A stretch of 64,000 bases of DNA, taken from NCBI GenBank assembly GCA_963699155.1, contig OY969414.1, forward strand, positions 651,757 to 715,756. The letters run 5' to 3'. Each line of letters begins with the position of its first letter. The stretch's first letter is position 1. A program made the position numbers and the translations under genes. This DNA is from an uncultured Chlamydiales bacterium (GTDB taxonomy: Bacteria; Chlamydiota; Chlamydiia; Chlamydiales; JAAKFR01). This document shows, piece after piece, positions 4,586 to 25,926 of this stretch. The notes under the pieces were generated by a model. It did not search any database. It had not been told where the DNA came from and worked only from the letters and a program-made list of their open reading frames with translations.

Positions 4586-6850
4586 CGAAAAGAATATGAT
4601 ATTCTCGGCAATGTCACGAAAAGCATCGATGGGGAGGGATATGAAACCAGAACGACCTATAATTATCAGGGCAAACCCCTTTCGATCAATTATCCCGATG
4701 GCAGTGAAGAGCATTTCACCTACAATCAGAATGGCACCATCGCGACCCATATCGATAAAAATGGCTCCAAGACCACTTATCAGTATGATATCTTTGAAAA
4801 TCCCATTCGTGTCGAAGTTTTTGCGCCTTCCGGAAAACTGCTCAAAGTGACTACTGCCACTTTCAGCCCCTTCTGTAAATTGAGCGAAGTTGATGGAGAG
4901 GGAGTCACGATCGACTTTTTCTACGATTTCGCTGGGAGAAAGGTTGCTGAACAAAGTGGTGAGAATAGGAGAGATTATTCATACGACTCCCTAGGGCGGC
5001 TTACAAAAAGTGACTGTCAGGCCTTCTGCACTATTGAAGAACACAATTTCGCTGACAAGGTCACGAGCAAACGCATCGAGTCAGATGCCCTTCAATTTGA
5101 AGAGGGATATCGCTACGATGAAGCGGGAAATCGCACCCAGCTTATAACAGCCCGAGGCACCTTCGAAACGGCCTACAACTCATTCGGAAAGCCTATCCAT
5201 GAAAAAGATCCTTTAAACAATGTCACTTCTCACACTTACCACTTCGTAAATGAGTATAGAGAGGTCGATACTGATGCCAAAGGGATCCAGACGATCCGCA
5301 TCTATGATTGTCGTGGCCGAGAGGCGGAACGGTTCCAATTGAACCACAAGGGAGAAACGCTCTCACGCTCCCTCCAACGCTACAATCACAATGGCAATCT
5401 CATCGAACAAGCCCACTTTATCTATGATGGAACAACCCCCATCCGGACGGTCACCCATCAATGGATCTATGGTCCCTCTAACCGTATCGAACGCTTCATC
5501 GAAGCAGGAGAAAAAAAGACAGAATATCTTTATGATCCAAAAGGACGTCTACAAACTATTGTCAAGCCCAGTGGCAAGCAAATTCACCATGAATGGGATG
5601 ATTTAGGAAGGCTTGCCCGCTTTTTCTCCACTGACTTTGACTATCATTATCGTTATGACAATTGTGATCGAGTTATCTCAGTTTACGATGCCCACTCCCA
5701 AACCACCACCACACGCTCATATGATGCCCTAGGCAGCCTCGTCAAATAGGTTCTGGCTACCGGATTGCAATTCACAAATACCTATGACACCCAAGGACGT
5801 CGCATCACCTTAGCACTTCCCGATAACTCAACCATCTCCTACACCTATCAAGGGGCTTATCTTTACCAAGTCAGCCGCAAAGGCCAAACCCACACCTACA
5901 AACACCGCACACTCGATGGACTTCTCGTGCAGGCAGAACTCCCTTCCCAACTCGGCCTCTTCACCATCGCCAGAGACCCCCTCACCCGCTGGATTCAAAC
6001 AGAATCCCCCTACTTTCAGTCCAAGATGAGCTATGATGCCGTCGGCAATCTCCTCACCTACCAATTTCATGACTCTCTTGGCACTGTCGAAAACCACTAT
6101 CGATACGATGATCTCAATCAACTCATCGAAGAATCGGATCACACCTACCAGTTCGACTCCCTCCACAACAGACTCAAGAAGGACAACCACGACCACACCA
6201 TCAACAACCTCAATCAAATTACCCACGATGGCAAAAGCAGCTTCCACTACGATCTCGACGGCAATCTCACCTCAGATGGTCACTGGAACTACGCCTACGA
6301 CAGCCAAGATCGCCTCATCTCAGCATCCAACCCCACCACCACCATCACCTTCACATACGACCCCTTCCACCGCCGCCTCTCCAAAACAACCCCAAAAGGC
6401 ACCCTCCACTACCTCTGGGATGGCGACAATGAGATTGGTTGCCTTACTCCATCCCCCCAATCCCTTCCCCAAATCCACCTCCAATATACCACACCTCCCA
6501 CCGAACCCTCCCTCACCCAACTCCGCATCCTCGGCGAAGGCCTCGGTGCCGAAATCGGCGCCGCCATCCTCCTCGAGCTCAACAACACCACCTACATCCC
6601 CCTCCACGACCACCGCGGCTGCCTCGTCACCCTCATCAACACCACCACCACAGAATCCTACCGCTACACCGCCTTCGGCGAAGAGCTCACCCCCTCCAAC
6701 CTCTCCCCCTGGCGCTTCTCCTCCAAACGCCTCGACCCCGAAACCCACCTCCTCTTCTTCGGCCGCCGCTACTACTCCCCCTCCCTCGGCCGCTGGCTCA
6801 CCCAAGACCCCGCTGGCCTCGCACAAGGGCCAAATTTGTATGCCTATGTC
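4586..6850 (+). repeat. 2265-bp inverted repeat arm 1 (rhs core)
   Basis: Reverse complement of 21517-23781; the only SNPs noticed are in the first ~170 bp and one near the 3' end. Confidence 0.95.
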
Positions 6851-7639
6851 TCTAACAACCCCCTCACCCTGCTAGATCTTTATGGTCTTTTTGAAACGAC
6901 CTACCGTTCACATTTATTCGGCTTTTTTGGCGTAGCAATGGATTTCCTTGGAATCGGACGGTCACAAGATTATCGGCACTTTGAAGATAATTTTAGTAAC
7001 AAATCAAGAAGCTTTAATCTAAATGCTCAAGGTTATAATTTTAAGGAGCCTCCACTAGGGCGCATTTATTTTGCTAATGGCATGGGCAATACATTCAACG
7101 AAACAATACAGAAATCCTTATATATTTCTAATATTTCAGGATTGAACACGTATGGATTGTATGGTTCAAACAAGGGATTTATTGATGATGTACATGAAGC
7201 TGCTATGTATATTACCCGCCGCACCATTACACCAGCGGTTATGAAATGCAAAACAGATATTAGAGATTTTGTCACGACGCATCCCAAAGGCGAACCTATG
7301 TTGCTATATTGTCATAGCCGAGGAACTGGGACAGTAGATACAGCTCTTAGTTTTTGTACAAAGAAAGAGCAAGAGCGTGTCATAGTTGCCGCATTTTGTC
7401 CTTCTGTTTATATTGATCCAAAAAATTGTAGGCAGGTCACGCATTATGTTCATCCTTATGACCCAGTGACCTGTTGTGATATAGTTGGAAGAGTAATGTA
7501 TAAAGACACGATCGTTCATGTTCCAAGTAATCCTCCAAATAGACAACACCCTCACGAATTTTTAAACCCTATTTATCAGAAATATGTTGAAGACGAAATT
7601 AATAATTATATGAAATTATTGAAGAGATATGAAAATTAG
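4586..7639 (+). pseudogene. rhs: 5'-truncated (orphan) Rhs/YD-repeat toxin with alpha/beta-hydrolase-like C-terminal tip; in-frame TAG at 5747-5749
   Basis: YD repeats; Rhs core RYYSPSLGRWLTQDPAG..NLYAYV.N.PL..DLYGL. Tip has HSRGT, DPV and a C-terminal His. Begins mid-gene with no signal peptide. ORFs 4847-5749 and 5765-7639 are in the same frame. Confidence 0.85.
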
Positions 7640-23700: not shown

Positions 23701-25926
23701 ATAATTATAGGTCGTTCTGGTTTCATATCCCTCTCCATCGATGCTTTTCGTGACATTGCCGAGAATATCATATTCTTTTCGCTCGATAGCGTTATCGGGA
23801 TGATGGATCCAGATGACACGCCCTACTGAATCGTAGCCAAATTTGGTGACATTGCCACATGAATCGCTCTCAGTGGTCACTCGACCTAATCTGTCATACT
23901 GCTTGCAGATCGATCCAGCAATCTGAGAATCTGTGATGCGGATGGGACGATTGGCCTTATCATAATCGACCGTCTTAAGCTGATCAGCTTTTGGGCCTTT
24001 GATCGATAAGAGATTTTGGTTTCTGTCATAGGTGAAAGAGGTTGTATTTCCGAGAGCATCGGTGGTCGCATGGAGCAACTCTCTTTCATAATGGTTCTGA
24101 ATGGAATAACAGTAGACTCCATTGGCGTCGTAGTGGTCCTCTTTTAACACTTTACCAAACGAGGTATAGGTGTAGACCACTTTTTTCAATAAGAGTTCTT
24201 GACCACTTGCATCGATCGTCTTTTCTTCCACCACTTCTGGCAATCCCAAACAGGGCATTGAGGCTTTAGGCTGCGTCACAATGATTTTTCGATAGGTGAC
24301 TCCAGTTAAATTATTGGGATCATTCGTGGAGCCATCGTCGACGATGGTTTTGATGCAAACGGCACAGTCGTCATAGCTGTTGAAGGTTCTTCTTCGAATC
24401 AGATCCCCTTCACAGACCAATTCAGAGGCTAATAAATTTGTTCCAGGTAGATAACTGTAATGGACAATTTTGCCATTGGGAAAAACTTCCTTCTCTTTGA
24501 CGTTGAATGCCTGATTGTAGGTGCGCTCAATGGTGCACCACTCATTTCCGTCTCCCACAAGTTCTAAAATGGGATTTTGATGGCTGTCGTACTGATATTC
24601 TGAGATCTGAATTGGATTTCCACAGCGATCCTCAACCGTTTTTCGGGTCAAATTTCCTGTATCCTTATTCCAGTTAAAGCGATCGACGCGATAGAGCTGA
24701 TCACCCTGGTAGGTTTCGATAGAAGTGATGCGCTTGTGTTCATCGAAACGGTAGATCACCTGATTATTTTCGGCGTCATAGACAACCGTCGCCCTTTCAT
24801 GGTAGACATAACGCCCGATGGGACACATCTCACCATTCGGCCCTGTAGGAGCATATTGGGCCGTTACTTTCTTAGTTTTTGGGTCGTAGTCAGTAGTGAA
24901 TACGCGTCCATCTGGCTTTTCTACTCGTGAGAGATAGTGCTCATCTTTAGTGTAACCATAGTCAATGCTGCTTTGATTAGGACGGCGTGATGCACCAAGC
25001 GTTACGGGTCTGAGATTGATGTGCTCCACCCGAGCTGTTCTTCCATCACTGCCCTCAAAGGTGATGCCTGCAACATGTTCATCCTTGAAACGAGAGTATT
25101 TAAAGTTAACAGAGCCTAATACCTTTGATTTATTAGAGTTGTAGGCAATGATGCTTTTGATGAGTTTGGATCTTGGATAACGATCCTTAGGGGCTTCGAT
25201 CCATTTTTCGTAGAAATAGACTAGAATATTACCATTTGGGAGACGCTCCTCGTCAATGGGTAAATGAAAAGGAGTCCAGACATTAGGGGTAATATGATCA
25301 TAGTCATTGTTAAGTCCGAAATCCTTGGGCACATGATAAACAACATCAATATCCCAGCAATGTCTTCTGGAATTAAACTTACGAACCCTCCCACTCCCGT
25401 CGAAGATAGATCCTAGATATGAAAAACGCAGTTTGTTTTTAGGGTCATGTTCTTTGTAATAGGTCAGATAAGTATTTGAAGGATGATTTCTGCCATCACC
25501 AGGGCTGATGAAATTTTTTGTCTGAAAATTAAATCGAAGGTGACTGCCGAATTTCAAATATGTCATGGATCCATCGATATCACCGATGATGACAAATTTT
25601 TCTTGTTCTTCGTATTCTAAATTCGCACCACAATAGACTTCTGGGTTGTAACGCCAGTCAGCATAACGATTGTCTTTCGGTGCTGTGTGGTTGTAGAAAC
25701 GTCTTACTGATATTGGTTGAGCACCTGCAACGACGAATTCCACCTCTTCTTCACAATATTCCCCTGTGATGGGATTTACTTTAGGAGAGATTTGGTAGTC
25801 GGTAGAAGTGAAGAAATAGTTTTCACGCTCATGCTTCGGCTTGCCTTTTGAAGCTTCAATCTCGGGAACGTGTTCAGCAAGGAGTGGTTGCATCAAGAAG
25901 AGTGCAACGAGAAGAACCGATTTCAT
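20680..25926 (-). CDS. rhs: Full-length Sec-signal Rhs/YD-repeat toxin (~1748 codons) split by one in-frame TAG at 22618-22620; alpha/beta-hydrolase-like tip
   Basis: GGAGG RBS, signal peptide MKSVLLVALFLMQPLLA, DUF6531-like VNPITGEY..RRFYN, YD repeats, Rhs core, DLYGL, tip HSRGG..DIVP..AHGF. Confidence 0.85.
21517..23781 (-). repeat. 2265-bp inverted repeat arm 2 (rhs core)
   Basis: Reverse complement of 4586-6850. Confidence 0.95.

Follow-up and report, generated by a model that had tools for sequence, protein, structure and literature searches.

An inverted pair of rhs cores with different toxin tips in an uncultured Chlamydiales genome: a plausible recombination substrate rather than a demonstrated switch

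The 64,000-nucleotide (nt) stretch of an uncultured Chlamydiales genome analysed here (the window) holds two copies of one rhs toxin-gene core as a long inverted repeat. One copy lies inside a full-length rhs gene and the other is a headless orphan on the opposite strand; each leads into its own toxin tip and small downstream open reading frame (ORF). We judge, with a probability of about 0.6, that this is a real inverted rhs pair and that it is a by-product of rhs repeat recombination in a low-GC patch rich in insertion sequences (IS), not a dedicated switch. As a substrate for recombination the locus is plausible; as a switch it is not demonstrated.

A repeat search over window positions 1-30000 returned one long inverted pair, with arms of 2314 nt (4580-6893 and 21474-23787) that are 99% complementary and separated by a spacer of 14,580 nt. 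An inverted repeat of such length and identity is far beyond chance. Compared base by base as mirror images, the arms show 10 mismatches within 4580-6850, nine of them at 4583-4752 and one at 6778, and from 6851 onward the two copies diverge steadily. In translation arm identity stops at ...NLYAYV, after which the left copy continues with SNNPLTLLDLYGL and the right copy with NNRPLTEIDLYGL; both pass a ...DLYGL motif before their different tips begin. A first-pass annotation of this DNA had reported near-identical inverted arms at 4586-6850 and 21517-23781, ending at NLYAYV ahead of DLYGL. These intervals prove to be the cleanest part of the 2314-nt repeat, and translation of both copies bears out where identity ends. 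Feature coordinates are collected in Table 1.

Table 1 Features of the inverted rhs pair, its interior and its flanks, in window positions
Feature	Position	Strand	Basis
Major facilitator superfamily (MFS) transporter gene, outer left flank	3250..4626	-	Sugar_tr 2.4e-21, MFS_1 5.8e-19 (Pfam)
Left arm, headless orphan rhs core (residues 714-1484 of the full gene)	4580..6893	+	Repeat search, translation
In-frame TAG in left arm	5747..5749	+	Translation
Tip 1 (CT1), end of identity through DLYGL to stop	6851..7639	+	DUF687 2.8e-5 (under family cut-off), Hydrolase_4 0.0035; both weak (Pfam)
Candidate immunity gene 1, ATG overlaps tip-1 stop, lipoprotein-signal-like N-terminus	7629..8168	+	Without Pfam or NCBIfam match
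IS5-like element, 82-nt terminal inverted repeats	8601..11163		Repeat search; Pfam DDE_Tnp_1, rve, HTH_Tnp_1
Low-GC block: MTS-type methyltransferase, adenosylhomocysteinase-like protein, EamA-FkbM fusion, 349-amino-acid (aa) ORF of unknown function	11393..16758	+	Pfam/NCBIfam
Single-copy IS3-family element: orfB 16847-17680, orfA 17676-17936	16847..17936	-	Pfam, genome search
ORFs of 340 aa and 200 aa, function unknown	18108..19980	-	Without family match
Candidate immunity gene 2, hydrophobic N-terminus	20145..20738	-	Weak local similarity to candidate 1
Tip 2 (CT2), fused to full-length gene, predicted serine alpha/beta-hydrolase	20680..21516	-	AlphaFold2 (AF2) model, Foldseek
Right arm, core of full-length rhs	21474..23787	-	Repeat search, translation
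In-frame TAG in right arm, mirror position of left-arm TAG	22618..22620	-	Translation, ORF list
Unique N-terminal 713 codons of rhs, signal peptide and DUF6531	23788..25926	-	Translation, Pfam
Shine-Dalgarno AAGGAGG, six bases 5' of rhs ATG	25933..25939	-	Sequence
Outer right flank: 759-aa gene, function unknown, next upstream of rhs	26097..28376	-	ORF list, Pfam scan

The right arm lies inside a full-length rhs frame on the minus strand, with its ATG at 25926 and its stop at 20680; in translation this frame begins with a signal-peptide-like N-terminus. Its core contains an RHS/YD repeat array (PF05593 at 3.9e-41 in the N-terminal ORF and 5.4e-14 in the C-terminal ORF; TIGR01643 at 6.1e-26), and the layout is that of an Rhs protein, with a conserved core end, then ...DLYGL, then a variable C-terminal tip. 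The usual Rhs core-end motif is PxxxxDPxGL. The frame of the left copy is open from 4400, offers no ATG, GTG or TTG until 4847 and is homologous to the full gene from residue 714. With neither start nor N-terminus and a core 99% identical to the main gene, it has the character of an orphan rhs-CT module; its placement does not, since such orphans are expected downstream in direct orientation and this one lies on the opposite strand, convergent and 14.6 kilobases (kb) off. The earlier claim that a ribosome-binding site, signal peptide and N-terminus belong to the right copy alone is confirmed by the AAGGAGG, the ATG at 25926 and the startless left frame. Scans of the sequence for promoters and terminators gave signals no better than those from shuffled sequence.

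One further reading is an assembly artefact of this metagenome-assembled genome (MAG), in which a repeat was collapsed or duplicated or strains were joined into a chimera. Repeats are where assemblies err, and reads shorter than 2.3 kb cannot settle which way round the interior lies; the source genome resembles the long-read MAGs of its relatives, judged by their record titles. We regard such an artefact as very improbable. The source genome is a single gap-free contig of 2,399,326 bases. Each arm is anchored on both sides in sequence unique to it, and edge mismatches, tips and downstream genes are arm-specific. The read search, which returned one soil-metagenome study represented by short low-depth contigs only (0.15 share of words), also found in soil run X1 independent pieces identical to arm positions 5122-5383 and to 7996-8188, the latter in candidate immunity gene 1.

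The distribution of mismatches along the arms is far from even. Nine of the 10 fall in the first 173 of the 2271 base pairs (bp) of the left arm (binomial P = 8e-10 under an even spread), and identity is 94.8% in these outer 173 bp and 99.95% in the remaining 2098 bp. As read from sequence, this mosaic points to recent exchange between the arms. The abrupt step from 5% to 0.05% divergence is not what a single recent duplication produces; most simply, an older copy that had already diverged would later have had its inner part replaced by gene conversion with the sequence of its partner. Since the outer 173 bp are still 5% different, the orphan probably began as a somewhat diverged copy that either arrived or arose here, and homologous recombination with the main gene would since have homogenised the rest of its arm.

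The alternative that the back half of an already broken rhs gene was copied once, by a recent inverted duplication or a rearrangement linked to IS elements, with the arms inert ever since, agrees with the IS elements that flank the modules. It predicts, however, an even spread of differences, where the outer 173 bp differ by 5% and the rest by 0.05%, and the same tip on both copies, where the tips are only 25% identical. Uneven divergence and different tips together require at least two events of different age. We consider an inert scar of this kind improbable, and return to the by-product of repeat recombination as the preferred explanation.

Both arms carry an in-frame TAG at mirror positions. 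In a search of 64 loci from relatives with the 120 residues around this position, 49 copies aligned across it, and the residue is Glu in 45, Arg in two, Ser in one and Asp in one. No suppressor tRNA was found among the 40 tRNA genes detected by ARAGORN, none of which reads a stop codon. As assembled, the rhs product ends after residue 1102, without a tip, and the frame of this Rhs protein is thus interrupted; most order-level homologues among the matches listed have open frames of ~1650-1930 aa. Because the TAG lies inside both arms, a full-length toxin is impossible in either orientation as assembled, and the rhs gene looks inactivated. Neither copy shows damage besides the TAG, so the mutation is likely to be young, and the presence of the derived TAG in both arms would place the last homogenising or copying event after it. 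Copying after the mutation is the simplest explanation of the shared TAG, a point in favour of the inert scar.

With arms inverted and in frame, a crossover anywhere in their identical part would turn 6851-21516 round and place the other tip behind the expressed N-terminus. RecA-dependent recombination would be expected to resolve in this way from time to time; inversion of 6851-21516 would then exchange the tips in frame and keep both downstream genes. The first-pass annotation had proposed that one crossover swaps the tip on the expressed N-terminus and loses nothing. Of this proposal the geometry, the frame and the retention of both ORFs stand, and the functional output does not, since the TAG stops the product either way. 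A recA gene is present elsewhere in the source genome (450 bits). Serine and tyrosine invertases (Resolvase, Phage_integrase) had no match in the 17 interior ORFs (tips and ORFs between the arms), and invertase families had none in 18 further stop-to-stop interior frames of at least 70 aa; only IS transposases (DDE, rve) were recognised in these two sets. These family scans uphold the earlier statement that no site-specific invertase lies inside.

The same geometry could have been maintained by selection as a reversible toxin-tip switch, alternating tips while both immunity genes are kept, as bet-hedging in competition. An exchange that is in frame and loss-free would suit such a role, as would the otherwise intact state of both tips and both downstream ORFs. 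The TAG inside both arms leaves the locus with no output at present, and this together with the evidence below on the tips, on orientation and on conservation makes a selected switch unlikely.

Tip 1 matches DUF687 and Hydrolase_4 weakly (Table 1), and aligns with tip 2 at 25% identity over 204 columns (E 6e-6). The language-model clusters closest to tip 2 include members with DUF687, DUF676 and DUF900. An AF2 model of tip 2, built from a nine-sequence alignment (A1) that includes tip 1, has a mean pLDDT of 71.5, with 85-97 in most 10-residue blocks of residues 61-200 and unreliable residues 1-55. Foldseek gave 58 matches to this model in the PDB at E<=1e-3 (TM 0.4-0.58), and alpha/beta-hydrolases make up nearly all of those listed (cutinases, lipases, esterases and acyl-protein thioesterases). 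A sequence search of the PDB with either tip gave no match at E<=1. H155-S156-R157-G158, D204 and H240 are invariant across the nine aligned sequences, tip 1 included. On the basis of the tip similarity, the fold matches to the model and these invariant residues, both tips are predicted to be diverged serine-hydrolase-type domains of one alpha/beta-hydrolase family. The tips had been annotated as different toxins; they do differ, at 25% identity, and yet are not unrelated. Two tips from one enzyme family speak against a selected switch between them.

The end of each tip is overlapped by a small ORF. The two products resemble each other only locally (35 residues, E 9e-5) and neither has a Pfam or NCBIfam match; an immunity role for these ORFs is a reasonable inference.

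The spacer holds three transposase-bearing IS elements. Nested inside the IS5-like element is a multicopy IS3-family element of 1.4 kb (~9667-11082). Searched against the genome, 8601-11163 gave 26 matches and 9500-11163 gave 23, and among the matches listed further copies of the multicopy element are 99.5-99.9% identical and lie on both strands. The contig depth of this element in soil run X1 is ~4 times that of neighbouring pieces. GC content is 50.6% in the arm, 38% in the interior, 34.7% in the methyltransferase block and 33.6% in the left flank (1-4579), for a genome value of 47.5%; the interior GC skew is near zero (-0.009) and uninformative on orientation. The orphan arm is located within one low-GC island. 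For an IS-rich, low-GC interior an accidental origin fits as well as a designed one. The MTS-type methyltransferases of the left flank (1-4579) and the interior (11164-16800) share only 29% identity. A 54-nt direct repeat (98%) occurs at 18645-18698, inside the 340-aa coiled-coil ORF, and at 19256-19309, in the gap before the next ORF.

On the outer side of the left arm, the annotated start of the MFS gene overlaps the first 47 nt of the arm. Further left, three families of direct repeats (45-65 nt, 89-95%, spacing ~1035 nt) at 1435-1620 and 2470-2656 mark a tandem duplication around two methyltransferase genes of the low-GC left flank. A paralogue of the 759-aa gene upstream of rhs, 68% identical and in the same orientation, is found 1.1 kb beyond the left edge of the window (G000:C1:648497-650635; L009:14465-16636), and after it come genes for surface proteins of the TIG/PKD/beta-propeller type. 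Distant from the window, the source genome has a third RHS-repeat gene, which is shorter (689 aa; G000:C1:1779370-1781439; L010:5371-7440). Its product shows ~40% identity to the main Rhs over residues 446-1098 of the latter, and its neighbour encodes a protein of 1098 aa in which SecA DEAD and P-loop domains are recognised.

Three congeners of the source genome (G000) were compared. The 759-aa flank gene is found in none of the three, the MFS gene has only 24-28% matches in one and the adenosylhomocysteinase-like gene a 37% match in one; neither synteny nor conservation of the locus was detected in any. The locus lies in an IS-rich, species-specific patch and has no dedicated inversion machinery.

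The short pieces from soil run X1 do not tell orientation: none of the 16 bridges an arm, and no flank is linked across one; heterogeneity of orientation, which a selected switch would lead one to look for, was not observed. In the left flank (1-3378) contigs of this run are 94-98% identical to the window, whereas the pieces that match the arm and candidate immunity gene 1 are identical there; the contrast points to a related strain or to an rhs module held in common. Two scans of a separate collection of metagenome contigs, from which close-relative records may be left out, gave no match to the tip 1 protein and no exact tip-1 30-mer.

The rhs family is common in the order, with a match at E<=1e-15 in 315 of 400 scored genomes, and the rhs relatives of the source genome are uncultured Chlamydiales MAGs. 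Orientation was surveyed in 42 related loci, each taken as the match with 10 kb or less on either side, a span in which a pair spaced as here would be missed. All 49 repeat pairs of at least 200 bp inside these loci are direct and none is inverted, which is the classical downstream-orphan layout and substantiates the expectation that orphans are usually direct. These direct repeats are 200-1800 bp long and 66-97% alike; the much greater length and likeness of the present arms (2.1 kb at 99.95%) is a point for a selected switch. A wider look for inverted pairs took in 150 of the 905 order-level matches, plus five contiguous genomes (95 matches). The search for further inverted rhs pairs that the first-pass annotation had called for therefore has a divided outcome: close opposite-strand DNA repeats occur in two genomes, and none in the 42 related loci. 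Such rarity counts against a maintained switch.

One of the two is the Chlamydiales genome G318, on whose contig C2 an inverted rhs repeat of 2513 bp (99.56%) has its copies 33.4 kb apart. The main rhs gene (1977 aa) is intact and the headless 1107-aa copy faces away from it. The 3' end of the core is present in nine copies, five on the minus and four on the plus strand; an intact main gene with core ends on both strands is a further point for a selected switch. The headless copy has an IS630-like ORF directly against its beginning, a point for the inert scar. None of the 13 ORFs scanned at this locus encodes a recombinase. As in the present arms, mismatches are clustered, with nine of 11 within 240 bp. 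The locus is not conserved in congeners of G318, as that of G000 is not in its own, and this counts against a maintained switch. Around the intact main gene (L046-L048, G318:C2:14000-70000) rhs orphan arrays occupy both strands; they include 91-98% identical inverted copies of whole orphan modules, and an unrelated second full-length rhs lies between. G000 and G318 are genomes of different families, and their Rhs proteins are ~32-35% identical.

In G331 there are two inverted pairs (84-98% identity), one of which has the same tip on both copies, and in G094 only a decayed remnant. Three further candidates were ruled out: a divergent rhs pair in G215, which has no long repeat; a convergent pair ~30 kb apart in one MAG (L014/L021), without DNA similarity at 1e-20; and a 'half' rhs in G054, which bears a signal peptide itself and lacks a close partner. 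The last (L052, G054:C40, ~59,400-63,100) is a naturally short Rhs with an open frame of 972 aa and a signal-peptide-like N-terminus. The start of its repeat region roughly coincides with that of the headless copies in G000 and G318, which hints at a core module boundary near residue 700.

Several observations weigh against a mere by-product of continuing recombination. This evidence can be summarised as (i) the start points of the headless copies of G000 and G318 fall in one and the same YD repeat, no more than 4 residues apart, and an accidental origin leaves this common start point unaccounted for; (ii) inversion or a second orientation is not shown, as no read or contig links a flank across an arm; (iii) none of the 10 mismatches is more than 173 bp away from unique sequence, and short-read polishing, if used, could erase a few true differences far inside the arms, among them a TAG that stood in one arm only; (iv) a very recent duplication without continuing exchange could alone yield near-identity. 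The force of (iii) is limited, since a divergence of 5% is too large for erasure by short-read polishing. The common start of headless copies in two families would also suit a selected switch. Weighing these points, we retain a by-product of rhs repeat recombination as the preferred reading.

A broader and distinctly doubtful proposal is that environmental Chlamydiales use RecA-driven inversion of opposed rhs cores as an invertase-free shufflon, in which a half-gene cassette starts from one YD repeat and all immunity genes are kept. If so, the G000 locus would have been inactivated recently and the G318 locus, where both strands bear several cassettes, would be intact, and reversible, loss-free tip exchange would be achieved by general recombination alone. 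Were such inversion real and recurrent, it would constitute a new route of toxin diversification and imply phase-variation-like behaviour in amoeba- and soil-dwelling chlamydiae. The G318 locus and the common start point of headless copies are the features most worth following.

Tip change in Rhs and other polymorphic toxins is thought to proceed by deletion, duplication or displacement, each of which costs a module or needs prior duplication. Homologous recombination between rhs cores is already known; what is unusual here is the inverted orientation of the orphan. In Salmonella Typhimurium LT2, homologous recombination can join an orphan rhs tip to the main gene (Koskiniemi et al. 2014, PMC3967940). 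That orphan is direct and shares 522 bp at 95%, and the main immunity gene is deleted unless the locus is duplicated first (PMC3967940). Both systems have an orphan rhs-CT/immunity module that shares its core with a full-length gene, and an expressed N-terminus that can be joined to the orphan tip. They differ in that the present orphan is inverted, with 2.3 kb shared at 99-99.95%, and that exchange would invert the segment with nothing lost.

In Citrobacter rodentium, near-identical rhs elements recombine and several configurations occur within one culture (Petty et al. 2011, PMC3072379). The likeness lies in near-identical rhs cores that serve as substrates of intragenomic homologous recombination (PMC3072379). 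The Citrobacter case described there is, however, a double-crossover translocation between distant elements, not a tip-swapping inversion of one expressed gene. The words 'inversion' and 'inverted' are absent from PMC3967940 and from Jackson et al. 2009 (PMC2935791), and from the first 300,000 characters of PMC3482391. Inversion-based tip exchange was not found in the Rhs literature searched.

Invertible C-terminal cassettes are known from other settings. The G segment of phage Mu and the C segment of P1, both for tail fibres, and the R64 shufflon have them, with short specific sites and a dedicated invertase. The arrangement resembles the present one in that a constant N-terminal part stands outside the invertible segment and alternative C-terminal parts face inward at its ends. 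The difference is that the rhs pair has homologous arms of kilobase length, and no invertase family among the interior ORFs scanned. In the sap system of Campylobacter fetus, inversion between conserved parts of opposed gene copies changes the expressed copy, and RecA takes part. Reliance on long homology is common to sap and to the inversion envisaged here. In sap, however, it is the 5' ends that are conserved and a promoter-bearing segment that flips between complete genes, whereas in the present locus the shared part is the 3' core and the parts exchanged would be the toxin tips.

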